Source of the DNA: Candidatus Omnitrophota bacterium | GTDB lineage: Bacteria > Omnitrophota > Gorgyraeia > Pluralincolimonadales > Pluralincolimonadaceae | NCBI GenBank assembly: GCA_003141835.1 | Contig: PLNR01000002.1 | Coordinates: 14,026 to 78,025 of the forward strand | Direction: 5' to 3' | Length of the DNA: 64,000 nucleotides | Shown here: in pieces, positions 3,929 through 35,659 of the stretch | Position numbering within the stretch: the first letter of the stretch is position 1 | Layout: every line of letters begins with the position of its first letter | The notes under the pieces: generated by a model | Told to the model about the DNA's origin: nothing | Databases searched by the model: none | What the model saw: the letters and a program-made list of their open reading frames with translations, nothing else | Program-made: the position numbers and the translations under genes

Positions 3929-4144
3929 TTAGTCCCTCCAGAAATACAGCGCCGCGGTGAGGACGATACCGATAAGGTATGTGGCCAGCGATCCCGAGAA
4001 GAAATACGGATACGCCATTAGCGCGATCCCGATAGTCATTGTGCGCCACAGCGTATTCTTTTTGCCGTAAACGAACGCGACAAAACCTATCGCGCCGAAG
4101 ATAGAACAGGCGGCAATTTTGGCGAAATTAAAATCTCCGAACAT
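3929..4144 (-). CDS. small 2-TM membrane protein (hypothetical)
   Basis: 71-aa hydrophobic ORF immediately upstream of the flavoprotein gene on the same strand. Confidence 0.4.
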   Translation of the reverse strand: MFGDFNFAKIAACSIFGAIGFVAFVYGKKNTLWRTMTIGIALMAYPYFFSGSLATYLIGIVLTAALYFWRD

Positions 4145-4257
4145 AGCAATGCCTCTATCTCGTTCTACCTACATAACTTTAGCATCATCCTATAATTATA
4201 ATAGTACACTACTTACAGGATGGCATCTTTTAAGCCTCTAACTAATAGATTGAAAAA

Positions 4258-4968
4258 TTATATTGGCGTCGATACTTTCCAACGGCCATTAAACATTGCT
4301 AACATGCTCTGTCTAACGTCTTCTCCGAGCAACACTATAAAACTTTCTTTATTACCTAAAAAATTTAAACTATTTCCAGATAACCAAAAATGTTTCTCAT
4401 CAATTATATAACGATCATGCAATTCGCTACAATTATATATTTTGATTTCCACATTAAAACCCTCGGAATTAATATGGGCTAACTGTCTTTTAATTATCCC
4501 TGGAGGTTTATTATCGAGTCGCGCTGTAAGTAGTCTAATAGAGGCGGCCTTTTTAAAATTCCTGAAAATAACATCAAGTGTACCTATATCTACGTAAGGA
4601 TCGCATATAGAAACTTCTTTATACTTATCATCCAATATTTCTTTAATATTGTTTTTGGCAGAAAAAGGCTGATTGGCAGTAATAAATTGGATTTTCTTTT
4701 TTTGAATGACCTTTGCCAGTTCGTCTCTCCCCTTCTCCATTAATTTCCAACCGTCCTTATTCTTGTTACACATACCCTTATTTTTTTGAAGGACATAATC
4801 AACGGCCTGACGTGAAGTATCAAAATGAGCTTTTTCTATAAGGAAAGACGCGATTTCGGCAGATGAATATCTATCTTTTTTAGGGGTGGCTAAATACTCA
4901 ATAGCTTTATAAGCCTTCAGAGCTAACTCATCTATTCCATTAATTATACGTACTACATTATCTTCCAT
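4258..4968 (-). CDS. island protein: N-terminal winged-helix-like region + C-terminal domain with degenerate PLD/HKD-like motif (HDRYIIDEKHFWLSGNSLN); putative nuclease-like effector
   Basis: AT-rich coding sequence. The motif HxRxxxD(x6-7)G-N-S-x-N resembles the PLD-family HxKxxxxD...GSxN but is not canonical. There is one copy only, so it would need to dimerise. Confidence 0.5.
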   Translation of the reverse strand: MEDNVVRIINGIDELALKAYKAIEYLATPKKDRYSSAEIASFLIEKAHFDTSRQAVDYVLQKNKGMCNKNKDGWKLMEKGRDELAKVIQKKKIQFITANQPFSAKNNIKEILDDKYKEVSICDPYVDIGTLDVIFRNFKKAASIRLLTARLDNKPPGIIKRQLAHINSEGFNVEIKIYNCSELHDRYIIDEKHFWLSGNSLNFLGNKESFIVLLGEDVRQSMLAMFNGRWKVSTPI

Positions 4969-4998
4969 AGCTCTATTGATACCCCAATGTTCCTCTTA

Positions 4999-5370
4999 TT
5001 ATTTTAAATTGTTAATGACTTCCCGAATCTTTAGATTAGGAATTTCATATTTAACCTTACCTATAAGTAGCCCTCTGTCTCGAAGCTTCTTAAAAAGAGG
5101 ATCTATGGTCCCTTTTTTTATGCGCGTTGCTTCATGAAACTCCTGAGCAGTGATCATTTCATCCTTAATCAGATTTTTAGCCTTAAGGAGTTTTTTTGCT
5201 AATCCATAAACCAATATTTTCTGCTCCGCTGTTAACTTTGTATCCTTAAAATAAATACTATTGTTCGCCTTCTGAATAGTTATATGAGGCCGAAGCGCCT
5301 CAACCACCTCGGATTCACTAAAGGGACCGTTATCAGAGAATAAATCAGTTATCGTTAGTTTTTCAGCCAT
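4999..5370 (-). CDS. island small winged-helix-like protein, paralog 3 of 3
   Basis: Start MAEKLT is preceded by GGAGGAGG. The C-terminal ~85 aa align with the two neighbouring genes (LAKKLL...ITAQEFHEATRIKKGTIDPLFKKLRDRGLL). Confidence 0.6.
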   Translation of the reverse strand: MAEKLTITDLFSDNGPFSESEVVEALRPHITIQKANNSIYFKDTKLTAEQKILVYGLAKKLLKAKNLIKDEMITAQEFHEATRIKKGTIDPLFKKLRDRGLLIGKVKYEIPNLKIREVINNLK

Positions 5371-5473
5371 GACCTCCTCCTTAAATTTATTATTAATTTT
5401 TTCATATATCATTGCACTTAATCAACGCCATCCCATTTGCTATAGCCCTCTAATTAAAGAATTATCTTGCGAG

Positions 5474-5860
5474 CTATTCATTTATTTTTAGTAACTGTAT
5501 TGCTTTAGTTACTGCTTCTAAGGGAATAAAGTATTCTTTGCTATCTTTTAAAACAATATATTCCTTTCCCAGTGTCGTAAGCTGAGAAGCAACGGAAACC
5601 TGTTTTGCTGAAATCATCCTGGCTAATTCTTTATAATCAATAGTTTCTTTTTCTATGAGCCCCAAAATTAGGGAGGCTTTCTTGGCAAGCAAAGAGGCTA
5701 TTATTTTCTTTTTTATGTCTAACTTATTGCCTATTTCCGTCCATTGAATTCGACCTGTTTTTTCCTCAATTTGTAATAAGGGTTGAAGTGTCTTAGTCAA
5801 AAGCTCTTTATTCAAATCTTCTGTTTTTACTAAAAGTTTCTTTAAAGGCTCATTTTCCAT
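5474..5860 (-). CDS. island small winged-helix-like protein, paralog 2 of 3
   Basis: 128 aa. The conserved core LLAKKASLILGLIEKETIDYKELARMISAKQVSVASQLTTLGKEYIVL aligns with paralogs 1 and 3. Confidence 0.6.
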   Translation of the reverse strand: MENEPLKKLLVKTEDLNKELLTKTLQPLLQIEEKTGRIQWTEIGNKLDIKKKIIASLLAKKASLILGLIEKETIDYKELARMISAKQVSVASQLTTLGKEYIVLKDSKEYFIPLEAVTKAIQLLKINE

Positions 5861-5880
5861 TTCGATTTTCCTTTCATTAT

Positions 5881-6288
5881 TTAAATTTTTAATTTTCCTC
5901 TAATTGCTCTCACAAAATCTTGCATTTTCGCCAAACGGACTTTGTAAGAGCCGCGCGTCGTAGACTCTAATAATCCTTCATCTTTTAAAACAGAGGCATA
6001 GGCGGAAATTTTTTTAGCTTCAATTCCTAATCTTTTTTCCAATTCTTTCCAAGATACCTCAGAAGAAACATTCTCGTCAATATGCGCTAATAGAAATTGG
6101 CCTAGGCAATAAAGCGCTATTTGTTCTTTATCTGTTAATCTCGAGGTAAATTCGATTCGCACTTCTCTATTCTCCGGATCTATTTTTAGAACTCCCCGGC
6201 ATAGCTGTATTAGTTCTTTTGTAAGCGCCCCCCCTGTTTCCACTAAAGTAGACTCGATTAAATTCCTAATTTCATCTTTATTATCCAT
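5881..6288 (-). CDS. island small winged-helix-like protein, paralog 1 of 3
   Basis: Start MDNKDE is preceded by AGGGAG. Core LGQFLLAHIDENVSSEVSWKELEKRLGIEAKKISAYASVLKDEGLLE. Confidence 0.6.
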   Translation of the reverse strand: MDNKDEIRNLIESTLVETGGALTKELIQLCRGVLKIDPENREVRIEFTSRLTDKEQIALYCLGQFLLAHIDENVSSEVSWKELEKRLGIEAKKISAYASVLKDEGLLESTTRGSYKVRLAKMQDFVRAIRGKLKI

Positions 6289-6507
6289 TTTCCACTCCCT
6301 TTTAAAATTAACTATACCACATATAATCAATTTGTCAAGAAAATTTTTTAAAACTACTTTCTTCGACTAAGAGTTGTTAAATTGTAAGTTGAAAAAATTT
6401 ATACTAGGGTAACAAAAAATGCCCCTCAGAAATGGTTTAGTGCCGTCTTATTTGACATCCCCTCGTGATTAAAACGGGCTATCACCTTGCAGGATGCATA
6501 GCTATTT

Positions 6508-7104
6508 TTATTTCTTTCTCCTTTTCATAAAAGCATCGAATTTCTTACTCAAAACAAATACATAATCACAAATTGCATTTGTAAAATCCAGGAGATCGCG
6601 AGAGTCTTCTCGGGATATCTTCTCTTCGGTTGCATGCGCTCCTATGTTTCTATGCAATCTTAGGGCATCTGACCACTCAAAGATCTTCTTATCAATAATT
6701 CCTTTTTTAAGTAACTCCTTTAGTCCTCCATGCAGCGCTTTTTCTTTAGTTTTATATTCTGAGCATATACATTCTAACGCCCTGCCGCACATTACAGCAC
6801 AAGCATTATATGCCTTTGATTTATAGCATAGATTTGCTTCTTCTATGGCCGCCTGAACAGGACCAGGGATACTCCAATCTAAGTATTTTTTGGGATCTGG
6901 CCATACTCTAGTTGCATCATCCCACTCCCATTTTTCTGAACTGATCTGAACAAATTCTTGACAACCAATTAAAGAACGTTTACAAGCAGGACATTCTACA
7001 AATGATATTTTATATCGAAACTCATCTTGCGGATCAACTTCTTCGTGCTGAGCTAATATTTTTGCATCTACTTTTGCTTCGCAATAATTGCATTCTATAA
7101 TCAT
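6508..7104 (-). CDS. zinc-ribbon + DUF4145 (HEPN-superfamily-like, Rx4H motif) protein; putative RNase-type toxin/abortive-infection effector
   Basis: N-terminal CNYC...CPAC zinc ribbon. The C-terminal ...ALECICSEY...LRLHRNIGAHATEEK...NAICDYVF matches the DUF4145 pattern with R-N-I-G-A-H (Rx4H). The start MIIECNYC is preceded by GGAGGG, and a TATAAT-like -10 lies upstream. Confidence 0.6.
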   Translation of the reverse strand: MIIECNYCEAKVDAKILAQHEEVDPQDEFRYKISFVECPACKRSLIGCQEFVQISSEKWEWDDATRVWPDPKKYLDWSIPGPVQAAIEEANLCYKSKAYNACAVMCGRALECICSEYKTKEKALHGGLKELLKKGIIDKKIFEWSDALRLHRNIGAHATEEKISREDSRDLLDFTNAICDYVFVLSKKFDAFMKRRKK

Positions 7105-7122
7105 ATTTCCCTCCGTTACATT

Positions 7123-7151
7123 ATTATACTCTTTGTGCACTTATCTGCGAA
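7123..7151 (-). promoter_or_regulatory. candidate sigma70-type promoter for the DUF4145 gene (-35 TTCGCA, 17-nt spacer, -10 TATAAT)
   Basis: The minus-strand sequence TTCGCAgataagtgcacaaagagTATAATaatgtaacGGAGGGaaatATG was read directly. Confidence 0.3.
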
Positions 7152-7344
7152 TCGAGAATACGTTATTCTTCCCCATTTAAAGACAATAAAAAGCCATAAC
7201 TGATTATTTATCAAGTTATGGCTTCATCTGGTGCGTAACCAGTCGTTTTGATGCTTCATTCCTTGTCTAGACGCTCGAAATTAATATAATAATTTCGAGC
7301 AGACAAGGGATGATTCATTACTCCCTAAAATATTGAGGAATTCA

Positions 7345-7423
7345 TGGCGAGCCCGGAGGGATTTGAACCCTCGGTCTTCAGATCGACAATCTGACGTGCT
7401 AGACCAGACTGCACCACGGGCCC
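7345..7423 (-). tRNA. tRNA-Asp (anticodon GUC), CCA encoded
   Basis: The reverse complement folds as a cloverleaf: acceptor GGGCCCG/CGGGCUC (one G-U pair), D-stem GUGC/GCAC, anticodon stem UCAGA/UCUGA with loop UUGUCGA, T-arm GAGGG-UUCAAAU-CCCUC, discriminator G, then CCA. Confidence 0.8.
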
Positions 7424-7438
7424 GCGTATATTTCAGAA

Positions 7439-7515
7439 TGGTGGGCGCTAGAGGACTTGAACCTCTGACCTGTAGAATGTAAATCTACCGCTCTAACCAG
7501 CTGAGCCAAGCGCCC
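7439..7515 (-). tRNA. tRNA-Val (anticodon UAC), CCA encoded
   Basis: The reverse complement folds as acceptor GGGCGCU/AGCGCCC, D-arm GCUC-AGCUGGUUA-GAGC, anticodon stem GUAGA/UCUAC with loop UUUACAU, and T-arm AGAGG-UUCAAGU-CCUCU, then ACCA. Confidence 0.8.
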
Positions 7516-8185
7516 CTATATCCGACCACTTCTTCATGCCTTCGATCCAACCTTTTATCCTGCATTGAAGACGTGTATCGGAAATCACTATCTTAAATGT
7601 TCCTAGCGGCAGTGTATCTCTTTTGTTTTTGCTTGCCCTGCTGACGGCTAGATGCGCTTTATGAAATTGGTCTAAAGGTATGCCGCTGATTTGTGACCAA
7701 AATTTTTCGGCTTTTTCTTTATTTAAGTGCGGATGGATATGAACTCCACCGCGAAATTTAGCATCGTTTACTTTACAGATATCTTTAAAAAATTTCATCA
7801 TCAAGCGCACCATATGCGGGTCTGAATTAGTGAAAATTACCGTATTATTTCCTGCTTTCGACCCTTCTCCCCAATATAGCGCGCTGCCGACCGCTTTTAA
7901 GAGAGTATTCGAACATTCCGATGGGATTTCCTTGGTCGCGGAATTTTTAATATCTTTCCGGATTTTTCCCCACTTTTGCTTGGGGCTATTCGGGTGGTTC
8001 GCCGCAACTGCTCTTCCCTTATCCTGGTTCGATTTAAGCTTAGCTATCTGATCTTCGGTAAGGGGGATATCTTCAATCCACCTGCTGACAGCACCTTTCG
8101 AGCATTTGACGCGTTTCGTTATGGCTCGAAGCGACCAACCTTGCCTGCGAAGCTCTCTTGCAAGCTTTCTTTCTTCTGCTTTCAT
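7493..8185 (-). CDS. HTH-domain protein with LAGLIDADG-like motif (ALYWGEGSK); possible homing-endonuclease-like or DNA-binding protein
   Basis: N-terminal helix-turn-helix (LARELRRQGWSLRAITKRVKCSKGAVSRWI). The motif LLKAVGSALYWGEGSKAGNNTVIFTNSD resembles a LAGLIDADG block. The 3' end overlaps tRNA-Val by 23 nt. Confidence 0.4.
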   Translation of the reverse strand: MKAEERKLARELRRQGWSLRAITKRVKCSKGAVSRWIEDIPLTEDQIAKLKSNQDKGRAVAANHPNSPKQKWGKIRKDIKNSATKEIPSECSNTLLKAVGSALYWGEGSKAGNNTVIFTNSDPHMVRLMMKFFKDICKVNDAKFRGGVHIHPHLNKEKAEKFWSQISGIPLDQFHKAHLAVSRASKNKRDTLPLGTFKIVISDTRLQCRIKGWIEGMKKWSDIGALGSAG

Positions 8186-10051: not shown

Positions 10052-10732
10052 TTATTTACCTTTGCACGTCTTTACGCAGATCCCGCAGATCGAATGGCCT
10101 ATTCCCGCCTTGTTGGCAAAGGCTTTCAACAGTTCGCGGCAGGCTTCCAGGTCCATATCTTTCGCGTCTTTTTTTATGGCTTTGGCCGGGCAGGCGGCGA
10201 CGCACGCGGCGCACTCGCCGCAGGTAATATCCACCGGCTTGTCTAATTTGAGGGGCATATCGGTGAGGACCGTCGCGTACCTTACCGCCGCGCCGTATTC
10301 CGGGTTGATGAGCAGGCCCGAGCGGCCTATGAACCCGTTCCCTGCAAGGCGGCCGATCTCCTTGTGCGAGAGCGCCCCGCGCATCATGCCCCAATCCTCG
10401 ACGTAGCTCGCCGGGATCGGCAGCGCGGAATAGCCGCCCTTCTGGATATGATTTGACAGCTTAAGGGCTATCTCGTCGACCAGCGAGTTGACCCTTTTGT
10501 AATGGAAGGCGTAGATCTTTGACGGCTTATTCGCGATAGTCTCGATTATCCTGCCTGCGAGGCGCACGCCTATCGAGACGCCGTAATCGAGCCCGCTAAG
10601 GACGGATTTCGGCTCGACAAAAAATCCGTCTTTTATCAACGACACGTCGGCAACGCCGAAGAGCGAAGCGCCTTCGGCCTCGGCGGCTGCTTTCAATTTT
10701 TCGTAATTACTTAAAGAGTCTGTTGCCTGCAT
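10052..10732 (-). CDS. short QueG-like (epoxyqueuosine reductase family) protein with two 4Fe-4S motifs
   Basis: HKEIGRLAGNGFIGRSGLLINPEYGAAVRYATVLTDMPL...CGECAACVAACPAKAI resembles the QueG core. There is a second Cys cluster, CGICVKTC. At about 225 aa it is shorter than canonical QueG. Confidence 0.45.
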   Translation of the reverse strand: MQATDSLSNYEKLKAAAEAEGASLFGVADVSLIKDGFFVEPKSVLSGLDYGVSIGVRLAGRIIETIANKPSKIYAFHYKRVNSLVDEIALKLSNHIQKGGYSALPIPASYVEDWGMMRGALSHKEIGRLAGNGFIGRSGLLINPEYGAAVRYATVLTDMPLKLDKPVDITCGECAACVAACPAKAIKKDAKDMDLEACRELLKAFANKAGIGHSICGICVKTCKGK

Positions 10733-11480
10733 CTGATAATATCTCAAGGTCCTTATAATCGGTCATGTCATAGTGCAGCGGCGTTATCGAGATGTAGCCG
10801 TCGCGGACCGCGACCGCGTCTACGAGCCCGTCGCCTTTTACCTGCGCCCTGTAACTGCACAGCCAGTAATACAGGTGCCCGTTCGGGTCCTCGCGCCTGT
10901 CGTAATCTTCCTTGTAAAAGGTAGACATCCCCTGCCGCGTTATCTTTACGCCCTTTATCTTCGCCTTCGGCAGCGCCGGGACGTTGACGTTGAGCAGCGT
11001 ATTGACCGGAAGCTTCTTTTCGAGCATGAGTTTTGCCAACTTATGCGAAAAATCGACCGCCGCCTCGAACTTCTCCCATCTAAACGACGCCAGCGACACG
11101 GCGAACGACGGCACGCCGAGTATCGCCCCCTCTGTCGCGCCTGAGACCGTCCCGGAATATAAGACGTTTATCCCGAGGTTAGGCCCGCGGTTGATGCCTG
11201 ATATGATGAGGTCCGGCTTTTTCTTCTTCATTATGTTCATCAGCCCGATCTTTACGCAGTCGGCAGGCGTACCGGATATTGCGTATCCGAAATATTTCCC
11301 GTCGCGGCGCGCCTCGTTCACTCGGAGCGGCACAGAGAGTGTTATCGCGTGCCCCTGCGCCGAGCGCTCGGCGTCAGGCGCCACGACAGTCACTTCAGCT
11401 ATCGACCTTAATTTCTTGTACAGGGCCGATATCCCGGCTGAATATGTCCCGTCATCGTTGGTAAGCAGTATTCTCTTCAT
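10707..11480 (-). CDS. surE: 5'/3'-nucleotidase SurE
   Basis: MKRILLTNDDGTYSAGI...ISGINRGPNLG...YSGTVSGA, hallmark SurE motifs. Confidence 0.85.
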   Translation of the reverse strand: MKRILLTNDDGTYSAGISALYKKLRSIAEVTVVAPDAERSAQGHAITLSVPLRVNEARRDGKYFGYAISGTPADCVKIGLMNIMKKKKPDLIISGINRGPNLGINVLYSGTVSGATEGAILGVPSFAVSLASFRWEKFEAAVDFSHKLAKLMLEKKLPVNTLLNVNVPALPKAKIKGVKITRQGMSTFYKEDYDRREDPNGHLYYWLCSYRAQVKGDGLVDAVAVRDGYISITPLHYDMTDYKDLEILSDAGNRLFK

Positions 11481-12550
11481 TTCATCTCTACCAATTCGTA
11501 ATCCATGCTCCCGAGGCCTATCTTCTTGCCGTACCTGAGCTGCGCCTCCCAATCGATATGCGGCCATATCTTTTTGAAAGCATCAGCTTTGAAGGCGCCG
11601 TTCACGACGTCGGCTGAGGCTTTGTCTATCGCGACCGGGTCTGTCGAGGCGAATATCCCGACGTCAGGCGCTACTGCCGGGTCGTCCTGGGCGAGGCAGT
11701 CGCATTCCTTCGTTATCTTCATCGCGTAACTCAGGAATAATATCTTCCCCTCTTTATCCTTCATCACGCCGAGCGCGAATTCGGCCATCTTCTCCTGCAC
11801 GTTATTGCTCGATTCGCCCCATGATATGTCGATGGCATCGCTTCTGCATGCCACGAGGCAGTCGGCGCAGCCGATGCATTTTTTTTCGTCTATATATGCG
11901 GTCCCGCCTTTCATCTCTATCGCCCCGGTCGGGCAATGGATGACGCACAATCCGCAGCCGATGCAGGCTTTCGCGTTGATAGTCGGCTTTATCGCAGAAT
12001 GCTGCATCAGTTTCCCGGCGCGCGTCGCGAAGCCCATTCCTATATTTTTCACCGCAGAGGCGAAACCCGTGACCATATGGCCCGTGACGTGCGAGAGGAC
12101 AACGACAGCGTCCGCGTCTGCGCACGCCTTCGCTATCTTCACGGATTTAAAATGTTTCCCGTTTATCTTCACCTCAAAATCTTCGCCCGACCTCAGCCCG
12201 TCCGCGATGACGACCGGCGCGCCGCAGATCTCCCGGGTATACCCGTGATCGAAAGCGATATTCGTGTGGTCGACCGCGTTCGACCTCGACCCTTTATACA
12301 GCGTATTCGAGTCGGTAAAGAACGGTTTGCCTTTGAGCGCCGATATCTCGTCGACGACAAACCTCGCGTGGCGCGCGTCGACGTGTCCGGTGTTGCCTTT
12401 GTCGCCGAAAGTCAATTTTATTGCGGTGAGCGCGTCTTTTTTGACTATATTCCTTAGGCCGGCCCTCTCCAGCAGCCAGCACGTCTTTTCGCGCATCGAA
12501 TCGAGCGGTTCGTCCCTTTTAGCTTTTACAAAAAATACCTTGGATTTCAC
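11477..12550 (-). CDS. DUF362-domain protein with two 4Fe-4S ferredoxin motifs
   Basis: CIGCGLCVIHCP and CIGCADCLVAC motifs. The overall layout is like DUF362/ferredoxin fusion proteins. Confidence 0.65.
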   Translation of the reverse strand: MKSKVFFVKAKRDEPLDSMREKTCWLLERAGLRNIVKKDALTAIKLTFGDKGNTGHVDARHARFVVDEISALKGKPFFTDSNTLYKGSRSNAVDHTNIAFDHGYTREICGAPVVIADGLRSGEDFEVKINGKHFKSVKIAKACADADAVVVLSHVTGHMVTGFASAVKNIGMGFATRAGKLMQHSAIKPTINAKACIGCGLCVIHCPTGAIEMKGGTAYIDEKKCIGCADCLVACRSDAIDISWGESSNNVQEKMAEFALGVMKDKEGKILFLSYAMKITKECDCLAQDDPAVAPDVGIFASTDPVAIDKASADVVNGAFKADAFKKIWPHIDWEAQLRYGKKIGLGSMDYELVEMK

Positions 12551-13038
12551 ACGAGCTCCACTATTTTCGCTTCCATCGTCTTCAAGTCTACTATCGCGAC
12601 CGTCGATTTGCCGGTCGTCCAGCCGCCGGTCTCGCCGGGGTTGACCAAAAGGGCGTTTCCTACCTTCTTTATCTCGGGCTTGTGCGTGTGGCCGTAGATA
12701 AGGAGATGCAATTCCTGGTTCTCTATCAGGCCCATGATACCGGGGACGTCCTCTATCTCATGGGTAATTATCATCTTTATGTTCGAAAGGTCATACCTGT
12801 AAGGATGGTCTACTATCAGGCCGTTCGACTTGATGGACAGGGCCTTTTTGTCGCCGTCGTTATTCCCGTAGACTCCCAGCCATTTGCATTTCAATTTGTC
12901 GAGTGGCGTGAGCGCGAACGGCGCGCAATAGTCGCCGGCATGGATGACCAGGTCGCATCCTTCCGCGTTGAATACCTCTACCGCCTTCCTCACCATAGGC
13001 ACGTTGTCATGCGAATCAGCCATCACTCCGAGCTTCAT
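12547..13038 (-). CDS. YfcE/MJ0936-family metallophosphoesterase
   Basis: MKLGVMADSHDN...HAGD...GNND...GHTH, calcineurin-like phosphoesterase motifs. Confidence 0.8.
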   Translation of the reverse strand: MKLGVMADSHDNVPMVRKAVEVFNAEGCDLVIHAGDYCAPFALTPLDKLKCKWLGVYGNNDGDKKALSIKSNGLIVDHPYRYDLSNIKMIITHEIEDVPGIMGLIENQELHLLIYGHTHKPEIKKVGNALLVNPGETGGWTTGKSTVAIVDLKTMEAKIVELV

Positions 13039-13051
13039 CCATTCCTCCGTA

Positions 13052-13714
13052 TTATTTTAACATTATCACCGAGAGCATCCTCCCGGCCTTTTCTTTTTCT
13101 TTCCTGAATGAGAAGAATTCGCCGTTCCTGCAGGCGGTGCATATCCCGCAGTCGAAAATATTTTTCGCGCTTATGCCGGCAGCTATAAGCTGCATGGCAT
13201 TCTCACCTACCAGGTCAAAATAATGCTTATGCGCCATTTTAACAACCGAATCGGGAAAATGCACCAAAAATTCGCTGTTCACTTCGTAACAGCACTGCCT
13301 GAGCGCCGGCCCCATCCCGACAAGCAGCCTTGACGGGGCTGACTTGTAATTCGCCTTCATCGCTTCGACGACGTTATTGGATATCCTCTCCTTCGTGCTC
13401 TTCCATCCCGCGTGTGCGATGCCACAGCAATGGTGCTCGGGGTCGTAGAAGAGTATCGGCAGGCAATCCGCCGTCCTGACGGACAACGCTATCCCTTTCA
13501 CGTTCGTTATCGCCCCGTCGGCCCCGGCGATCTCCCCTGACAAGTCGGTCTTTGCGTCTATCTTCACGACCTTCCCGCCGTGCACCTGTTCAAGGCGCGC
13601 GAGTCCCTCGGGGACGATCCCCAGCCTCTTGAGGAAATCCCCATGGCTTATCTTCCGGTCGGAGATGCCGTGCAAGACAGGAAAATTTTCCAGTTCCTTA
13701 AGCGCTATTATCAT
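13052..13714 (-). CDS. pgeF: PgeF/YfiH family (laccase-domain, purine nucleoside phosphorylase-like) protein
   Basis: VRTADCLPILFYDP...CCGIAHAGW...GPALRQCCYEV motifs of DUF152/YfiH. Confidence 0.75.
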   Translation of the reverse strand: MIIALKELENFPVLHGISDRKISHGDFLKRLGIVPEGLARLEQVHGGKVVKIDAKTDLSGEIAGADGAITNVKGIALSVRTADCLPILFYDPEHHCCGIAHAGWKSTKERISNNVVEAMKANYKSAPSRLLVGMGPALRQCCYEVNSEFLVHFPDSVVKMAHKHYFDLVGENAMQLIAAGISAKNIFDCGICTACRNGEFFSFRKEKEKAGRMLSVIMLK

Positions 13715-15672
13715 CAGAACGGCAGTCCCACGTCGAACATGAATCTCGGCACCTGGCTCTCCTTGTTCGTATTAAGCGGATAGGCGAGGTCGAAGCGCAG
13801 GACGGTCCATTTCGTCCTGAAGCGGATCCCGCCGCCGATGGAATTCTGGAGCTCGGCCGGGAAGCGCACTTTGTTAAAGCTTCTCCAATCCCCGCCCACA
13901 TCATAAAATATTGCGCCGTTGAACCATCTGTATATTGGGAACCTCATCTCCGCGTTGCCCAGCAGCATCACCGTGCCCCACAACGGCCTGTTGTCAGCGT
14001 CCTTGGGCCCTATTGAGTTGACTTTATACCCGCGCACCGTATCTATGCCTCCCAGCATGAACCTTTCGAAGAACGGGACGTCTTTCGCTTCGCCGTACGT
14101 GTCCATCCATCCGCCCATGCCCCTGAGCGCGAAAGTTATCTTCGGGTAAGGCAGGGTGAAATACCATCTCCCCTCGCCTGTGGCCCTCATGAAATTATAA
14201 TCGCCTCCGAGGCCCTTCGCTGCGACGCCGAAGCCGGCGTGGTAATACGAGCCGTCCGTAGGGTAGAGCTTATCGTCAAATGTATTCCTCTCCCAATGGA
14301 AAGAGAGCGTCGATACGCTGCTTTTGCCTTTGTTGAGCTGGAATTCCTGGGGAGCCGAAACAGGCACCTCATCGACATTCACGGCCTCGTATGTATATTT
14401 TAGGAACCCGTGGGTATGCTCGGTAATGCGGCCCCCGAATATGATGTCCCCGCCGGCATCGCGCATGCGGTGGCGGTCATCCTCGGATGCGCGCCAGAGC
14501 GCCTCGGCCCCGCCGAAATATCCCGTGCCGAGAAGGTCTTCCCTGATGACGCCTGCGCTGATGTCCCTGTACCTGTTGTTAGTGCCGACCTTTATCTTGT
14601 AGTTTGTCTCATTGCCGATGTATTTCCCCGCGTCTATCGAAAAATTCGATACCGGGGATTCGGGATAGTACGACGGCCCGATCCTTTTGGCTTTTTCCCT
14701 GTCTACCAGCTCGGCGTAAAAGAATTGGAATGTCTTTATTTTAGCGTAGCCCATCGTGAAGAGCGAAGTGAAATGGCCCGACGGTATCCAGATTATCTCC
14801 GGTTTGTTAAGCGCCTGCCACAACTGGTCGGTGCTCTCGCGCGGGATCGCGGTATCGAAATACGCGTTCACCATCAGGACGGGCTTTCCCTTGCACCTGT
14901 CCGCGAAAGCCAGCGGGTCTATTATCCATAACCTCTTCTCCAGTTCCTGCTCTGAAGCTATTCCTTCCTCTTCCAGGCATTTCTTGAAAGTCTTTGTCGT
15001 GAAGCTGTTCCATACTATCTTGCCCATATTGCCGCCGCCGAGGATTATGGCCATCGAGCACGGCCTTTGGTCCACCCCTGTGACGATCGGCACCATTATC
15101 CCGCCCAGGCTCAGGCCCATTATGCCGATCTTGTCCTTTTCCACTTTGGGTTGCGCCTCAAGCCAGTCTATCCCGCGCCGCGCCTCGATGACTATCTGCC
15201 GGAATAGCTGGACTATCGCGTCCGAGCCGCATTGTTTGATATTCGCGTCGAGCCATTCGCGGCTGAATTTATAATCCTTCTGATACGCGGTCTGGACCAG
15301 CAATACCGCTATGCCGTTGGAGGCGAGGTCGCGGCAAAAATCCCCTTCGATCTGCGGCACTCCCCCGGCTATATGGCTCAGGAATATTACCGCCGGATAT
15401 TTTTCCTTGCCCTTCGGCTCATAAAAATCCAGGTATACCGTATTGTTAGGGTAATCGGTCTGCAGGGCCGAGGGATAACTGAAAGAGTAATGCTCGTATT
15501 CGCCGGTCTTCTCTTTCGATTCGAGCGTGCAAACAGGTACGCCTTTTGGATAATCGTAGAATTTGGCCGGATCAGCCTCTTCTCCGCGTGCCGGGGTGGA
15601 AAAAACCGGGCTCCCGGTGAAAAACATCACGAGAAAGAACGCGAACCGCCATTTCATCTTTTTTTCATCCAC
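13714..15672 (-). CDS. secreted alpha/beta-hydrolase (GLSLGG) fused to C-terminal Omp85/BamA-type (Bac_surface_Ag) beta-barrel
   Basis: Signal peptide. Dienelactone-hydrolase/esterase-like N-terminal half with GxSxG. The C-terminus has ERFMLGGIDTVRGY, GAIFYDVGG, GGGIRFRT..LRFDLAYPL and a terminal F, as in Omp85 barrels. Confidence 0.7.
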   Translation of the reverse strand: MDEKKMKWRFAFFLVMFFTGSPVFSTPARGEEADPAKFYDYPKGVPVCTLESKEKTGEYEHYSFSYPSALQTDYPNNTVYLDFYEPKGKEKYPAVIFLSHIAGGVPQIEGDFCRDLASNGIAVLLVQTAYQKDYKFSREWLDANIKQCGSDAIVQLFRQIVIEARRGIDWLEAQPKVEKDKIGIMGLSLGGIMVPIVTGVDQRPCSMAIILGGGNMGKIVWNSFTTKTFKKCLEEEGIASEQELEKRLWIIDPLAFADRCKGKPVLMVNAYFDTAIPRESTDQLWQALNKPEIIWIPSGHFTSLFTMGYAKIKTFQFFYAELVDREKAKRIGPSYYPESPVSNFSIDAGKYIGNETNYKIKVGTNNRYRDISAGVIREDLLGTGYFGGAEALWRASEDDRHRMRDAGGDIIFGGRITEHTHGFLKYTYEAVNVDEVPVSAPQEFQLNKGKSSVSTLSFHWERNTFDDKLYPTDGSYYHAGFGVAAKGLGGDYNFMRATGEGRWYFTLPYPKITFALRGMGGWMDTYGEAKDVPFFERFMLGGIDTVRGYKVNSIGPKDADNRPLWGTVMLLGNAEMRFPIYRWFNGAIFYDVGGDWRSFNKVRFPAELQNSIGGGIRFRTKWTVLRFDLAYPLNTNKESQVPRFMFDVGLPF

Positions 15673-16448
15673 TTACTGTCTTTTGAGGCGCCCCATTTAG
15701 TACTTTCATTCCGGTCCGGCGCGGCCTCCTTCGTCTCCGACGGCATATCGCCCAGGACCGGCGTGACAAGCGTCGCGGCTATATCGTAGCTGTTGCCCTT
15801 CGGGGTCTTGGTCAGCACGATCAGCTTCTTCCCCCAGTATTCGCGGAGCGGCATAATTATCCTGCCGTTCGGCAGGAGTTGGTTGACCGCCTGCTGCGGC
15901 GCGAAATCTATCGGATTGGTTATAACGATGACATCATAAGGCGCGAATTCCGCCCACCCGGCATCTATCCTGCCGGTCTTTACCTTTATGTTCTTATAAC
16001 CGAGCGCCTTAAGCCTTTCTTCGGCCTGCAGGGCGACCCCTTGCGACGGCTCGACGCAATATACTTCCTTGGAGAGTTCCGCCAGGACAGCGGCCTGGTA
16101 ACCGGATTCTACGCCCAATTCCAGGACCCTCTCTCCCCCTTTAAGCCCGGCCAGTTGGGCGACCAGCGAGACGAAATACGCCGGCGGGACCGCCTCGTCT
16201 CCGCCTATGGGCAGCGATATGTCATCGTAGGCGTATTGCCTCATGCCTTCCGGGACGAACTGGTGCCGCTCTATCCTGCCTATGACATCGAGGATCTTTT
16301 TGTCCTTGATACCGCGCGCTGCGACCTGGGAATCGACCATCATCTGCCGTTGGCGGGCATAATCGGTCCCTTCCGCGGCGCAAACGGAGGACGATACCAG
16401 AAAAACAGAAAGGAAGAACGCGCAGGGCCTTGGCAAACTCATCTTCAC
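15654..16448 (-). CDS. pcm: protein-L-isoaspartate O-methyltransferase with predicted signal peptide
   Basis: VLELGVESGYQAAVLAEL (AdoMet motif I) and AYDDISLPIGGDEAV, in the PCMT family. The N-terminus MKMSLPRPCAFFLSVFLVSSSVCAA is signal-like. Confidence 0.8.
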   Translation of the reverse strand: MKMSLPRPCAFFLSVFLVSSSVCAAEGTDYARQRQMMVDSQVAARGIKDKKILDVIGRIERHQFVPEGMRQYAYDDISLPIGGDEAVPPAYFVSLVAQLAGLKGGERVLELGVESGYQAAVLAELSKEVYCVEPSQGVALQAEERLKALGYKNIKVKTGRIDAGWAEFAPYDVIVITNPIDFAPQQAVNQLLPNGRIIMPLREYWGKKLIVLTKTPKGNSYDIAATLVTPVLGDMPSETKEAAPDRNESTKWGASKDSKWMKKR

Positions 16449-20425: not shown

Positions 20426-22531
20426 TTATTCCTCTATCAATGCCTTTATCTGCGGGAGCATCCTCTCGGTTTCCTGCTCCCCGCGCCTTATCAGCGCCTC
20501 TACCTTATACAATTCGAACCACGCCGCGTTCGGCAGGACCGGGTGTATGACGCAATCCGCGTCCTTGGACGAGGCCTCGGCGAATACATACTGCATCGCC
20601 AGCGAGGTGCTCATTATCACGTCGAATACGTTAGGCGCGAATGTCCGGCGGGCCCATCTGCGGAATTTATAGGCGAGCCGCGAAAATACCGTGCGCTGCG
20701 ACAGCCTTATCTCTTCGCTCCTTCGCATCTCCTCGAATTCCTTGAAAGCCTTCATCATCTCTTCCTGGCTGGGCAGGCAATTTACGGCTATTATCTTCTT
20801 TGCGCCGTATTTCGCCAGGACGTCTATCGGGACAGGGTCGAGGGTGCCGCCGTCTATGAGGAAGTCATCCCCGTATCTTACGGGTTTTATAAATGCCGGG
20901 ATAGAACATGAAGCCCTGAGCGCGTCGACAAGGCTGCCCTCCTCAAGAATTATGTTCTCGCGGGAACGGAGCGTATTCGCGACGATCTTTAGCGGTATAT
21001 GCGTATCGTGGAATGTTTTCCTGCCGAGGTATTCGCGGAAAAACCTCTTGAAGTTATTACCGTTCATGAAGCCGCGCAGCGGCAGGAGCGAGAAATCCGC
21101 CAGCGAAAAGACCACGTCTTTCCTCTTGAACCTTAGCGCTATCTTTTCGAGCTCCTCGGCCTCTATTCCGGTCACCCAGAAAGCGGCGACGACAGCGCCG
21201 ATCGACGTGCCGGCGATAAAATCTATCGGAATCTTCTCCCTCTCAAGGACCTTCAGCACGCCGATATGCACCAGCCCGAGGGCCGCTCCTGAGCCGAGCG
21301 CGAGGCCGACGAGGATCTTCCCGATCTCGCGGGCGATCCTCCTTACCGACCTCGAATAGAGGCTCTCCGGTACGGCCAATACCGGCGGCAATCCCGCGGA
21401 CATCATCCCGGCCAATAACCCCAGGTCCGGCAGGACCGCGTAAGCCTTGTGGCCCAGCAATTTGACCTCTTCTTCGAAAGTATCGGTCTGCACGAATTCG
21501 TTTATTATCGCCTTGACCGTGTTGTCGGGATCCGGCACCACTTTTTTGAGTTCGTTGATCAGTTTACCGGTGGCTTTCAGGTTATGCGCATTGCAGTCGC
21601 TGACGACATGTATGAGGTCGGACTGCGCGAGAAGCGAATAGGTCGGTTTGTCTATCTCCGGCGGCATGTCGACAACGATATAATTGAACTCCGACGCCAG
21701 GGAACTCAGGAATGAGATGATGTGCGCGGGTTCGATCTTGCTGTGGTCGTCGCAGCCCAGGTTAAGCAGGTATATGCCCCCGGCTTCGTATTTCGTTATG
21801 AGGGGCTTGGCCTCTTCGTAATTCATGCTGTGGCGCTTCAGGTCGATGCATTTGAGCTCTCCCATCTGCAGCATCGCGGAACATTCGTTCCCTGAGTGGC
21901 TCATATCGAGGAGTATGACCTTCTTGCGCGTCTCGTAGGAGAGCGCTATCGCAAGGTTGACCGCGTACATCGTCCGCCCGGATTTCTTGGCGAGCCCGAA
22001 GACGGATATTATCGAGGACTCGAAGATCGTCCTCTGTTTCGACTGTTCCTTCTGCAGGCGGCGCGAGAGGGCCTCGGTGAGCTTCAAGGCAAGCTGCGGC
22101 ACTTCCTTGAGCAGGCTATCGAAATTCTTTTTGTCTATGCGGAGGATAAGCGAATCGTTTATTATGCGGACAGATGCGGAATGCGGCTCGTTGGTAAGAA
22201 GCGAGATTATGCCTACGTAATCGCCGCGGTGCAGGTGGACAAGCGTCTTCTCTTCCCCGGACGGCGTCCTGACGAATACCTTCGCCCTGCCGGTTATCAT
22301 GCAATAAAAAGAATCTCCCTTCGCGCCTTCGCGGTAGAGGATATGGTTCTTCCTATATTCGGCCACGTAGGAATTATCCTCTATCAGCTTTTGGGCCGCG
22401 CCGGGGAGGCCCGAGAAGATAGGTATCCTTCTTATTATAGACGCTTTATCGATGCTTGGGTTGGCAGGGTTCATCCCTTGTATTATATAGACTTGGGATG
22501 AAAAAGTCAAAAAAAACGCCAACGGCTCCAA
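20426..22531 (-). CDS. tri-domain protein: cyclic-nucleotide-binding domain + ParA/MinD-like domain with degenerate Walker A + patatin-like phospholipase
   Basis: cNMP-binding beta-barrel (GDSFYCMITGRAKV...GDYVGIISLL). Middle domain VFGLAKKSGRTMYAVNLAIAL in place of KGGVGKT. C-terminus has GLALGSGAALGLVHIGVL (Gly-rich), GTSIGA (GxSxG) and DGG. The true start is probably MNPANPSID (~22474). Confidence 0.7.
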   Translation of the reverse strand: MEPLAFFLTFSSQVYIIQGMNPANPSIDKASIIRRIPIFSGLPGAAQKLIEDNSYVAEYRKNHILYREGAKGDSFYCMITGRAKVFVRTPSGEEKTLVHLHRGDYVGIISLLTNEPHSASVRIINDSLILRIDKKNFDSLLKEVPQLALKLTEALSRRLQKEQSKQRTIFESSIISVFGLAKKSGRTMYAVNLAIALSYETRKKVILLDMSHSGNECSAMLQMGELKCIDLKRHSMNYEEAKPLITKYEAGGIYLLNLGCDDHSKIEPAHIISFLSSLASEFNYIVVDMPPEIDKPTYSLLAQSDLIHVVSDCNAHNLKATGKLINELKKVVPDPDNTVKAIINEFVQTDTFEEEVKLLGHKAYAVLPDLGLLAGMMSAGLPPVLAVPESLYSRSVRRIAREIGKILVGLALGSGAALGLVHIGVLKVLEREKIPIDFIAGTSIGAVVAAFWVTGIEAEELEKIALRFKRKDVVFSLADFSLLPLRGFMNGNNFKRFFREYLGRKTFHDTHIPLKIVANTLRSRENIILEEGSLVDALRASCSIPAFIKPVRYGDDFLIDGGTLDPVPIDVLAKYGAKKIIAVNCLPSQEEMMKAFKEFEEMRRSEEIRLSQRTVFSRLAYKFRRWARRTFAPNVFDVIMSTSLAMQYVFAEASSKDADCVIHPVLPNAAWFELYKVEALIRRGEQETERMLPQIKALIEE

Positions 22532-34915: not shown

Positions 34916-35659
34916 TTACAGGGTCTCTTTAAACCAATTCGAGACCAGCTCTTTCATCCTCTCCGGGTACTCCTCGATAAGCCGTTCTGCGTGAAGGCCT
35001 TTGGGAATTATGGCCAGCTTCTTGTCCTTGGCCGTCGCGGCATCATAAAGTTTTTTTGAATGGTAATCCTTTATGACCCAGTCCCTGTCGCCGTGTATGA
35101 ATAACATGGGCACTTTAATACCGGCGATGCGGTCTATCGGCCTGACCTTAGGCAAAAAGATGCTGCCGGGCCTCACGCCTTTGCCTTCCCACTTGCATTC
35201 TAAATTAGCTTTAAGGTCGGAAAGCATGCCGGGTTCCCAAAAATTATAATCCATCCTCCAAAAACCGGTCGGCGCGCTGACAAGTACCAGGCTTTTTACC
35301 TCCGGCCGCCTGGCCGCGATGATTATCGATATCGCCGCGCCTAACGAAAACCCCATCAGGCCGATCTTTTTATACCCCTGGCTTACCGCATAATCCAGTA
35401 CCGCTTCGAGATCTAACGGCTCTTTCGCCGTCCAGGCGAATTTACCGCCGCTCTCGCCGTGCCCGCGGAAATCGAAGATCATCACGTCATGCGAATCCGC
35501 GACAAGCCCGATCGACAGCCTTATGGCGCTGTTACTCTTGCTGTTGAAAAATCCCGGGCAGATGATAACGAGTGAATCGCGGCCGTTCTTGAAATGCTCG
35601 TAGGCGATTTCCACGCCGTCGACCGTAGTCAGCCTGCCGGATAATACGTGGTTCGTCAT
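34916..35659 (-). CDS. alpha/beta hydrolase (GFSLGA nucleophile elbow)
   Basis: RGHGESGG...GFSLGAAISI...HGDRD. Start overlaps the upstream stop (ATGA). Confidence 0.7.
   Translation of the reverse strand: MTNHVLSGRLTTVDGVEIAYEHFKNGRDSLVIICPGFFNSKSNSAIRLSIGLVADSHDVMIFDFRGHGESGGKFAWTAKEPLDLEAVLDYAVSQGYKKIGLMGFSLGAAISIIIAARRPEVKSLVLVSAPTGFWRMDYNFWEPGMLSDLKANLECKWEGKGVRPGSIFLPKVRPIDRIAGIKVPMLFIHGDRDWVIKDYHSKKLYDAATAKDKKLAIIPKGLHAERLIEEYPERMKELVSNWFKETL

Follow-up and report, generated by a model that had tools for sequence, protein, structure and literature searches.

The open reading frame at 13714-15672 of the window (the whole 64,000-nucleotide stretch of Candidatus Omnitrophota DNA analysed here) is one real gene, whose product carries an α/β-hydrolase in front of an Omp85-type β-barrel. 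We give an even chance to the reading of this protein as a catalytically competent Ser-Asp-His hydrolase of the carboxylesterase/lipase type, facing the periplasm and anchored in the outer membrane by its barrel. Such an α/β hydrolase-Omp85 fusion is rare and undescribed, and literature searches for Omp85 fusions with an α/β hydrolase or a dienelactone hydrolase found none.

Table 1. Features of the fusion gene and its two neighbours (positions are those of the window; residues are counted from the GTG start).
Feature	Positions	Strand	Remarks
Whole ORF	13714..15672	minus	652 codons plus stop (13714-13716); GTG start as called
Sec-type signal peptide, residues 6 to ~25-30, MKWRFAFFLVMFFTGSPVFSTPARG	15583..15657	minus	Read from sequence
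α/β-hydrolase domain, DLH/esterase-like, residues 34-328, helical cap ~216-262	14689..15573	minus	
Catalytic nucleophile Ser188 in G-L-S-L-G	15109..15111	minus	Invariant in alignments
Catalytic acid Asp273	14854..14856	minus	Invariant in alignments
Catalytic base His300	14773..14775	minus	Invariant in alignments
Junction/seam, residues 329-355, KRIGPSYYPESPVSNFSIDAGKYIGNE	14608..14688	minus	Proline-rich, highly conserved; in the place of Omp85 strands 1-2 and turn 1
Omp85 β-barrel, residues 356-652	13717..14607	minus	14 confidently modelled strands, equivalent to BamA strands 3-16
Loop 6 VRGY, residues 546-549	14026..14037	minus	R547, G548 and Y549 invariant (29 sequences)
Strand 13 FxDxG (FYDVGG), residues 589-594	13891..13908	minus	F589, D591 and G593 invariant (29 sequences)
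C-terminal β-signal-like strand ending GLPF	13717..13740	minus	G649, P651 and F652 invariant; protein ends ...FDVGLPF
Upstream PCMT-type protein-isoaspartate methyltransferase, signal-peptide-like N-terminus	15654..16448	minus	Pfam PCMT, E 1e-36
Downstream overlapping YfiH/PgeF-type gene (Cu-oxidase_4)	13052..13714	minus	Pfam, E 5e-58

The reading frame is single and uninterrupted and lies on the minus strand. Translation probably starts at the ATG at 15657, giving a product of 647 aa; a database protein of this length (P0001) was found by protein search to be 100% identical to the window product. This ATG overlaps the stop codon of the upstream PCMT gene as ATGA, and the stop of the fusion gene overlaps the start of the downstream YfiH gene as TGATG, overlaps which suggest translational coupling with both neighbours. 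Inspection of the signal peptide revealed no lipobox cysteine, and an equivalent hydrophobic N-terminus is present in all family members in a 29-sequence alignment. The protein has six native Cys residues. Residues 1-32 have pLDDT values below 50 in both AlphaFold models. The signal peptide is followed in turn by the hydrolase, the junction and the barrel.

The N-terminal half of the protein was analysed through Pfam, and the DLH family (PF01738) matched residues 84-195 at 33.5 bits (cutoff 21); ABHD18 and Peptidase_S9 also matched this half. With a profile score above threshold and the corresponding fold, the domain is a DLH-like α/β-hydrolase. The nucleophile elbow, GxSxG (G186-L-S188-L-G190), falls within the GLSLGG of the original prediction (residues 186-191) and is followed by the acid and the histidine in the canonical order. 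All 29 fusion proteins, which share 50-85% identity with the query, have Ser188, Asp273 and His300, and the triad is likewise invariant in a 12-sequence alignment that includes barrel-less relatives. The α/β-hydrolase N-terminus proposed at the outset is thus borne out by the Pfam match, the elbow and the conserved triad, and the proposed absence of a patatin passenger also stands, with no match to patatin (PF01734) in the window protein by Pfam. The nearest solved structure to the domain, PDB 4Z8Z, is of an uncharacterised protein, and a PDB profile search gave acetyl xylan esterases and cephalosporin C deacetylase among its matches. Among the weak family matches are those to lactone hydrolases (RcgR, UilS) and to acetyl esterases.

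The Omp85 family (PF01103) matches residues 359-652 with 157.2 bits (cutoff 24; E 1e-45), and the match takes in positions 10-325 of the 325 in the profile. Loop 6 of Omp85 proteins has (V/I)RG(F/Y) as its hallmark, and in the ‘lid-lock’ the arginine of this loop is paired with the FxDxG of strand 13 (PMC11358297); both motifs are present here. The Bac_surface_Ag motif ERFMLGGIDTVRGY was located at residues 536-549, and the terminal aromatic residue, which had also been picked out beforehand, is Phe652. Membership of the Omp85 superfamily, as first proposed for the C-terminal half, is supported by the PF01103 score, the loop 6 and strand 13 motifs and this C-terminal aromatic residue; the POTRA expected of the superfamily is lacking. 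The score for the BamA equivalog (TIGR03303) is 155.8, where the cutoff is 297.15, and that for the TamA equivalog (NF047950) is 80.2, where it is 625.

The two-domain structure was modelled in two AlphaFold runs (pTM 0.71-0.76). Both gave 14 regular strands, against the 16 originally expected, with strands 1-2 unformed, and these remained unformed in the second run, which used a deeper and more diverse alignment and was aimed at them. Homology to strand 2 of BamA and to strand 1 of distant relatives argues for a barrel of the 16-strand type with an irregular seam.

The place of the two unformed strands is taken by the junction, which lies between the end of the last hydrolase helix at residue 328 and the beginning of strand 3 at residue 356. 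Y335, P340 and F344 vary little or not at all, and 28 of 29 sequences have P337. The junction aligns to the BamA segment ‘SISQNNFLGTG’, which in the E. coli BamA structure we take to be strand 2 and turn 1, and also to a canonical-looking strand 1 in P0046, P0047 and P0049. In the AlphaFold models it has a single bridge residue (344), with pLDDT values of 62-76. The alignment to BamA leaves essentially no free linker, and little or nothing to thread the barrel lumen. Profile searches of Pfam and NCBIfam returned no POTRA family even at E ≤ 1, and the AlphaFold models contain no β-α-α-β-β unit between the hydrolase and strand 3, where there are 27 residues. The original view that the linker is too short for a full POTRA therefore holds as regards the POTRA, but the ‘linker’ is a conserved, BamA-like segment and not merely a short one; barrel and junction together come to ~324 aa, rather than the ~280 aa first assigned to the C-terminal part.

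A survey of the fusion in other genomes, suggested with the original prediction, found the same architecture in 29 protein clusters at 90% identity and in 15 of 185,579 species genomes; about 5 clusters among 1.84 billion protein representatives carry it. The record titles mostly read Candidatus Omnitrophota or Omnitrophica, with five ‘uncultured Planctomycetia’, and the family appears to be restricted to Omnitrophota. Its members are labelled in databases either ‘BamA/TamA family outer membrane protein’ or ‘dienelactone hydrolase’, and one half of the protein is hidden by either label. An assembly or frameshift error that merged two adjacent genes is so improbable that it can be set aside: the 29 clusters come from independent assemblies, the junction itself is strongly conserved, and no evidence favouring such a merger was found. 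A conserved junction and an uninterrupted architecture across assemblies indicate that the protein is not a chimera or a chance ORF.

A word-index search with the hydrolase only (477 candidates) returned one irrelevant fragment, and relatives of this domain were taken instead from an exhaustive search of protein representatives. The barrel-less relatives carry signal peptides, and two have a possible lipobox (LAGC in P0062 and a weaker CGC in P0051), so that some of them may be anchored by another route. Longer fusion relatives have ~600 aa of folded N-terminal domains before the barrel. The close long-form relatives have a degenerate C45 (AAT) domain, and the window protein has none. These proteins form a series in which a soluble C45(AAT)+hydrolase protein gained a barrel, after which the C45 domain decayed and was then lost, as in the window.

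The PCMT gene directly upstream and the YfiH gene directly downstream flank the fusion gene in L001-L004 also. Within the close clade the fusion belongs to one co-directional string of overlapping genes, with the order cNMP-patatin (a phospholipase), FixC-like, long-chain acyl-CoA ligase, Hydrolase_4 (lysophospholipase-like), (M23, M48), PCMT, fusion, YfiH, metallophosphoesterase, DUF362 and SurE. The lipid genes in this string give weak support to a lipid-related role. They are confined to the close clade and absent around the distant three-domain relatives, for which reason the neighbourhood was downgraded to weak functional evidence; it may represent inherited gene order rather than function. 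Neither of two large ORFs in the window is a canonical BamA, that at 61721-63883 being CarB and that at 35656-38469 DUF2339.

According to the reading that we prefer, the protein would first be exported by Sec, and the BAM machinery would then insert the barrel into the outer membrane. The hydrolase, joined to strand 1 of an Omp85-type barrel without a POTRA and without a free linker, would be held in the periplasm directly beneath the strand 1/strand 16 seam, with the barrel acting as a membrane anchor and positioning device and not as a secretion pore. The enzyme would most likely cleave esters in a substrate that is associated with the envelope and probably lipidic, paralleling the proposal for PlpD. 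The case for the periplasmic orientation is indirect but reasonably strong, as the hydrolase runs directly into the BamA-like junction and this into strand 3, and as the signal peptides of the barrel-less relatives, together with the two possible lipoboxes, are what envelope-resident enzymes would be expected to carry. Surface exposure would moreover entail the export of all folded N-terminal domains of the longer relatives, and there is a precedent in PlpD, whose patatin domain was found in 2024 to stay in the periplasm, where it is linked to outer-membrane lipid homeostasis (PMC11116518). For a lipid or ester substrate, and for the physiological role, the case is weak.

The original prediction was of a type Vd-like secretion architecture. 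On such a reading the barrel would export the hydrolase to the cell surface or release it, for attack on host or prey membranes or for lipid scavenging by an ultra-small, possibly predatory cell. What survives of this is the arrangement, a lipolytic-type enzyme N-terminal to an Omp85-type (not TpsB-type) barrel, like PlpD and FplA as first described (PMC4104836). Omnitrophota have been proposed to be host-dependent or predatory (PMC10066038), the nearby genes for fatty-acid activation and lysolipids would fit scavenging, and the seam is irregular in the models, with a strand parity that is not proven. However, the patatin and the POTRA of type Vd proteins are both missing, and the junction gives little room for a lumen-spanning linker. 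The lumen-plugging motifs of loop 6 (VRGY) and strand 13 (FxDxG) are invariant, and it is the ‘lid-lock’ residues in these two elements that keep Omp85 barrels plugged. The longer relatives would have to pass ~600 folded residues through the membrane, and the PlpD paradigm has itself been overturned (PMC11116518). Autotransport of the hydrolase is thus, in our view, distinctly improbable. A similarly low probability attaches to a barrel that still works as a BamA/TamA-like insertase or translocase, with the hydrolase in place of the POTRA handling or processing clients, for example by deacylating or trimming an exported substrate. Every conserved Omp85 motif is kept, Sam50 works without its POTRA, and noNterm Omp85 proteins are suspected of a part in biogenesis (PMC4104836). 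Against this, the scores are far under the equivalog cutoffs (156 against 297 for BamA and 80 against 625 for TamA), the models show no strand at the segment in the place of the templating strand 1, where there are invariant prolines, no partner or client gene is common to the close (L001-L004) and distant members, and a family confined to one clade cannot be a general insertase.

A periplasmic enzyme anchored in the outer membrane could also act on a non-lipid substrate, such as lactones, among them acyl-homoserine lactones (quorum quenching), or acetyl esters on peptidoglycan or polysaccharide, with the ancestral C45 (AAT) domain cleaving the matching amide. In NCBIfam the domain family comes closest to RcgR, matched by 11 of 12 members at a best E of 2e-32, and to the AHL lactonase UilS, matched by 4 of 12; the best Pfam match is DLH, with AXE1 weak and below its cutoff, alongside the esterases and the deacetylase of the PDB profile search. 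In the ancestral architecture the hydrolase is partnered by a C45 acyl-amide hydrolase or transferase, and the flanking YfiH/PgeF gene and, in relatives, the M23 peptidase are envelope- or peptidoglycan-related. Nevertheless, matches of the RcgR, UilS and AXE1 type are all below their family cutoffs, and RcgR (NF047337, ‘putative quorum lactone hydrolase’) was dropped as a substrate clue, since its match is far below the cutoff (42-45 bits against 182) and the RcgR literature checked mentions no hydrolase activity, let alone demonstrates one. A small, diffusible substrate moreover offers no obvious reason for welding the enzyme to the seam. We consider a non-lipid substrate unlikely.

The preferred reading, a periplasmic hydrolase on an Omp85-type anchor, can be extended into a more specific one, which we offer tentatively and hold to be possible though rather doubtful. 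The family would be a second independent recruitment of the Omp85 scaffold after PlpD, giving a self-contained outer-membrane device for processing lipids in which the invariant, proline-rich replacement of strand 1 would keep the seam permanently irregular, disorder or thin the inner leaflet and feed acyl esters to the hydrolase beneath. If this were true, ‘enzyme under the Omp85 seam’ would be a general design principle and not a peculiarity of PlpD, and Omnitrophota would gain a lineage-specific route for remodelling or recycling the lipids of their outer membrane.

For a long time Omp85 proteins were seen solely as POTRA-bearing protein insertases or translocases. The 2024 work on PlpD suggested that the barrel can also scaffold periplasmic enzymes, and the window family would be a second, independent case, with a different enzyme fold, no POTRA and an unusually constrained, proline-rich seam. 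The readable series from soluble C45+hydrolase proteins through barrel fusion to decay and loss of C45 shows how such fusions arise. Confirmation of the orientation and of a lipid substrate would support the Omp85 seam as an access to membrane lipids, and would provide a function for one among many unannotated envelope proteins of the uncultured, possibly host-dependent Omnitrophota.

Compared with BamA and TamA, the window protein has the VRGY and FxDxG motifs and the terminal aromatic residue in common, but it has no POTRA, falls below the equivalog cutoffs and carries a proline-rich segment in place of strand 1. The PL-Omp85 proteins (PlpD of Pseudomonas aeruginosa and FplA of Fusobacterium nucleatum, formerly ‘type Vd secretion’) share with it a signal peptide, an N-terminal serine hydrolase of lipolytic type and a C-terminal Omp85-type barrel, which in both is nearer to BamA/TamA than to TpsB proteins. 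In PlpD the enzyme is periplasmic and near the barrel seam (PMC11116518), as is probably the case in the window protein. The enzymes belong to unrelated fold classes, however, the one being a patatin with a Ser-Asp dyad and the other a DLH-like α/β hydrolase with a Ser-Asp-His triad; a single POTRA lies between enzyme and barrel in PL-Omp85 and none in the window protein, whose family, unlike PL-Omp85, appears to be restricted to Omnitrophota.

Other Omp85 proteins resemble the window protein in different respects. The ‘metallo’ and ‘WD40’ subfamilies (Heinz & Lithgow 2014, PMC4104836) have a non-POTRA N-terminal domain, as it does, and are known from sequence surveys only, over a taxonomic range that is likewise narrow, although in a different lineage. 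The N-terminal enzyme of the ‘metallo’ type is PF00149, to which the window protein has no Pfam match, and an α/β hydrolase is not among the ten Omp85 subfamilies described there. Barrels of the ‘metallo’ and ‘WD40’ types resemble those of noNterm proteins (PMC4104836), and it is with noNterm proteins that the window barrel is most fully alignable in sequence; the alignment with the barrel-only P0067, P0073 and P0079 (328-355 aa) extends across the entire barrel and takes in the junction motif. The noNterm Omp85 proteins (e.g., Leptospira LIC12252/12254/12258, PMC11358297) likewise lack a POTRA and have the loop 6 and strand 13 motifs. They have only ~20-45 aa of periplasmic stretch before the barrel, where the window protein has a hydrolase of ~300 aa, and the Leptospira proteins have 16 strands in their AlphaFold models, against the 14 regular ones of the window protein; Pfam gave no DUF5982-type match in the window protein. 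On the enzyme side, the soluble or lipoprotein C45(AAT)+hydrolase proteins and single-domain relatives (P0050, P0055, P0204; PDB 4Z8Z) have no barrel, and most C45(AAT)+hydrolase relatives retain an intact C45 with its Cys nucleophile, but their hydrolase is homologous to that of the window protein, at 30-39% identity and with an identical triad.

The fusion gene forms a single unbroken open reading frame of 652 codons, and its longest reading starts with GTG at 15672. An ATG at 15657, overlapping the stop of the upstream gene as ATGA, is probably the true start, since its 647-residue product exactly matches the public-assembly protein P0001 (100% identity). At the other end, the stop and the following gene's start overlap as TGATG, which points to a place within a tightly coupled operon, and the neighbouring genes all lie on the same strand.

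The N-terminal half of the protein (numbered in the 652-residue reading) matched DLH (PF01738), ABHD18 and Peptidase_S9 above the Pfam thresholds, and residues 359–652 matched the Omp85 family (PF01103) with an E-value of 1e-45 and nearly the entire profile covered. With NCBIfam, residues 343–652 aligned to the BamA barrel region (profile positions 415–741), with a score well below the equivalog cutoffs of both BamA and TamA. No POTRA model from Pfam or NCBIfam matched the protein, even at permissive thresholds. Residues 6 to ~30, read from the sequence, resemble a Sec signal peptide lacking a lipobox. Two AlphaFold2 runs, one on 43 and one on 55 aligned sequences, gave a mean pLDDT of 83.7 and 85.6 and a pTM of 0.71 and 0.76, respectively. 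Both runs produced a confident alpha/beta-hydrolase domain at residues 34–328, with a helical insertion at ~216–262, and 14 long strands at residues 356–648. The top Foldseek matches of the barrel in the PDB were BamA, TamA and Sam50 only (TM 0.76–0.78, normalised to barrel-only TamA). The fold neighbours of the hydrolase were carboxyl-ester hydrolases almost without exception; 4Z8Z, its nearest solved structure, was also its best PDB match by sequence profile (E 6e-20). These data bear out the original prediction of an alpha/beta hydrolase joined to an Omp85-type half with no full POTRA domain, and its motifs are all present (GLSLGG at 186–191, ERFMLGGIDTVRGY at 536–549 and the terminal Phe).

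Across 29 aligned fusion proteins (50–85% identity to the window protein), D273, H300 and the nucleophile-elbow residues G186, S188 and G190 were invariant, and these positions remained so when barrel-less relatives (30–36% identity) were added. An invariant triad in the Ser-acid-His order that is canonical for alpha/beta hydrolases makes it very probable that the domain is active as a serine hydrolase. In the barrel of the same 29 proteins, invariance extended to the C-terminal G649, P651 and F652, the loop 6 motif (R547, G548, Y549) and the strand 13 motif (F589, D591, G593), the latter two constituting the 'lid-lock' pair of Omp85 barrels (PMC11358297).

Set against a count of 16 strands fixed beforehand, the AlphaFold models show 14 regular strands, and the seam segment 329–355 has lower confidence in both runs (pLDDT 62–76) with a single beta-bridge residue. 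The register is anchored by a short helix at 442–445 (BamA loop 4) and by the 42-residue VRGY loop (loop 6), and we take the modelled strands to be strands 3–16 of BamA, as numbered in the E. coli structure. The family profile aligns residues ~341–355 with BamA 'SISQNNFLGTG', presumably strand 2 and turn 1. The preceding residues in the distant fusion members P0046, P0047 and P0049 resemble an ordinary strand 1 (GFNIEA, VIYFAS and ELKISA, respectively); the window clade has PSYYPES at this position. We read the barrel as probably of the 16-strand type, with irregular, proline-rich seam strands. Judged by its conservation, the junction is a constrained segment and not a floppy linker, because Y335, P340 and F344 show little or no variation across the 29 sequences, 28 of which have P337. 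The first barrel strands are less conserved than the junction motif, (I/M)G(L/V)xY(Y/T)PxxPxxxF(R/S)(I/F), whose F-x-I/F core resembles a beta-signal-like triplet and recalls the Ile-Ser-Phe lid motif of the patatin-Omp85 protein PlpD, which binds strand 1 (PMC11116518).

Strand 1 is entered from the periplasm, and the C-terminus lies in the periplasm, in all characterised Omp85 proteins (PMC11116518, PMC4104836). The last hydrolase helix ends at 328 and strand 3 begins at 356; the hydrolase would thus be attached at the periplasmic rim, adjoining the strand 1/strand 16 seam, because residues 329–355 fill the place of strands 1–2 directly after it. PlpD is the only enzyme-Omp85 fusion studied, and experiments showed that it dimerises, affects phospholipid levels and keeps its enzyme in the periplasm (PMC11116518). 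From the sequence, the models and this analogy, we infer that the hydrolase resides in the periplasm. Surface exposure would require an odd number of strands or a junction threading the lumen, but the lumen is normally filled by the loop 6/strand 13 lock, which is invariant here. Hence, the architecture originally proposed stands, but the type Vd-like secretion attached to it is unsupported: the hydrolase end abuts the strand 1–2 segment, the lid-lock is invariant and the PlpD enzyme is itself periplasmic. The barrel-less relatives carry signal peptides. Possible lipoprotein signals occur in two of them, LAGC in P0062 and, less clearly, CGC in P0051, consistent with an enzyme that works tethered in the envelope.

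In our favoured reading, the fusion protein would be a serine esterase or lipase that is anchored in the outer membrane, faces the periplasm and acts on envelope lipid. On sequence and models, we give this location, with general esterase or lipase chemistry, roughly even odds, and hold any specific substrate to be considerably less probable. Lactones, including AHLs, or acetyl esters are suggested as alternative substrates, the sole pointer to them being family matches that are all sub-threshold.

The gene belongs to a co-directional, overlapping string conserved between the window and relatives with as little as 52% identity. The string is compatible with lipid turnover, a signal that we treat as weak because the string is absent around the distant three-domain members. 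In relatives too, the PCMT (protein-L-isoaspartate O-methyltransferase) gene directly precedes the fusion gene, and the signal-peptide-like segment at its N-terminus, MKMSLPRPCAFFLSVFLVSSSVCAAEG, suggests an exported protein-repair enzyme. The YfiH/PgeF, YfcE-like, DUF362 and SurE genes downstream of the fusion gene, together with PCMT and, in relatives, M23, resemble an expanded form of surE-pcm-nlpD, the classical E. coli stationary-phase cluster. Elsewhere in the window, a low-GC stretch adjoining two tRNA genes looks like a foreign island inserted beside them.

Features of the window, with the gene string numbered 1–11
Feature	Position	Strand	Remarks
1. cNMP-binding patatin phospholipase	20426-22531	-	701 aa; cyclic-nucleotide-binding, AAA_31 and patatin domains
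2. FixC-like flavoprotein
3. Long-chain acyl-CoA ligase
4. Hydrolase_4			lysophospholipase or monoacylglycerol-lipase type
5. M23 and M48 peptidases			some relatives only
6. Exported PCMT	15654-16448	-	directly upstream of fusion gene
7. Fusion gene	13714..15672	-
8. YfiH/PgeF	13052-13714	-	downstream of fusion gene
9. YfcE-like (metallo)phosphoesterase	12547-13038	-
10. DUF362 Fe-S protein	11477-12550	-
11. SurE	10707-11567	-
Junction motif	14608-14688	-	residues 329-355
Best sigma-70-like promoter of region	22510-22482		TTGACT-17-TATAAT, before patatin gene
Low-GC stretch	4000-7520		35-39% GC vs ~54% elsewhere
Four ORFs of low-GC stretch	4258-4968, 4999-5412, 5474-5860, 5881-6330		no Pfam match above threshold
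DUF4145 ORF	6508-7140		within low-GC stretch
tRNA-Asp	7345-7423	-
tRNA-Val	7439-7515	-
Predicted membrane protein	35656-38469	-	937 aa; DUF2339 family

When 1.84 billion representatives of 50% identity clusters were scanned exhaustively with HMMER, only about five full-length fusions (P0013, P0019, P0046, P0047 and P0049) and a fragment emerged, against thousands of relatives with the hydrolase or the barrel alone. Scanning one genome per species (185,579 species) with two conserved peptide patterns, which divergent members could escape, gave 15 full-length loci, their record titles mostly Candidatus Omnitrophota/Omnitrophica, with five 'uncultured Planctomycetia'. P0047 (37% identity) is also from Omnitrophota. 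Source annotations read 'BamA/TamA family outer membrane protein' or 'dienelactone hydrolase / cephalosporin-C deacetylase-like esterase'.

Pfam scans and further searching resolved the relatives into single-domain hydrolases (soluble or lipoprotein); the hydrolase preceded by an N-terminal C45/AAT Ntn-hydrolase domain (~680–810 aa; P0050, P0055, P0059, P0204); AAT, hydrolase and Omp85 barrel (~1000 aa; P0046, P0049, P0196-P0202); and the hydrolase-barrel form of the window. N-terminal alignment with P0046, P0049, P0050 and P0055 showed that two parts of the AAT domain are deleted from the 900-residue proteins nearest to the window protein (P0016-P0028), namely a 27-residue stretch with the Cys nucleophile (C[TS]NF...H[GA]RNL) and the final ~100 residues. 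The entire domain is absent from the window protein. As read from these stepwise deletions, the AAT domain decays and then vanishes while the hydrolase-barrel unit is conserved, and this unit is the selected core.

A literature search found no description of an Omp85 fusion with such a hydrolase, and a 2014 census of Omp85 subfamilies includes N-terminal domains of the patatin, metallophosphoesterase ('Metallo') and WD40 types but no alpha/beta hydrolase (PMC4104836). The fusion protein is not an orthologue of BamA or TamA, and it falls outside PL-Omp85 (formerly type Vd) because it has neither the patatin nor the POTRA domain of that class. Within the known class of Omp85 barrels with a non-POTRA N-terminal enzyme, it represents a new form restricted to its lineage; it would widen the emerging view of these barrels as enzyme scaffolds, and it offers a putative seam-plus-enzyme design.
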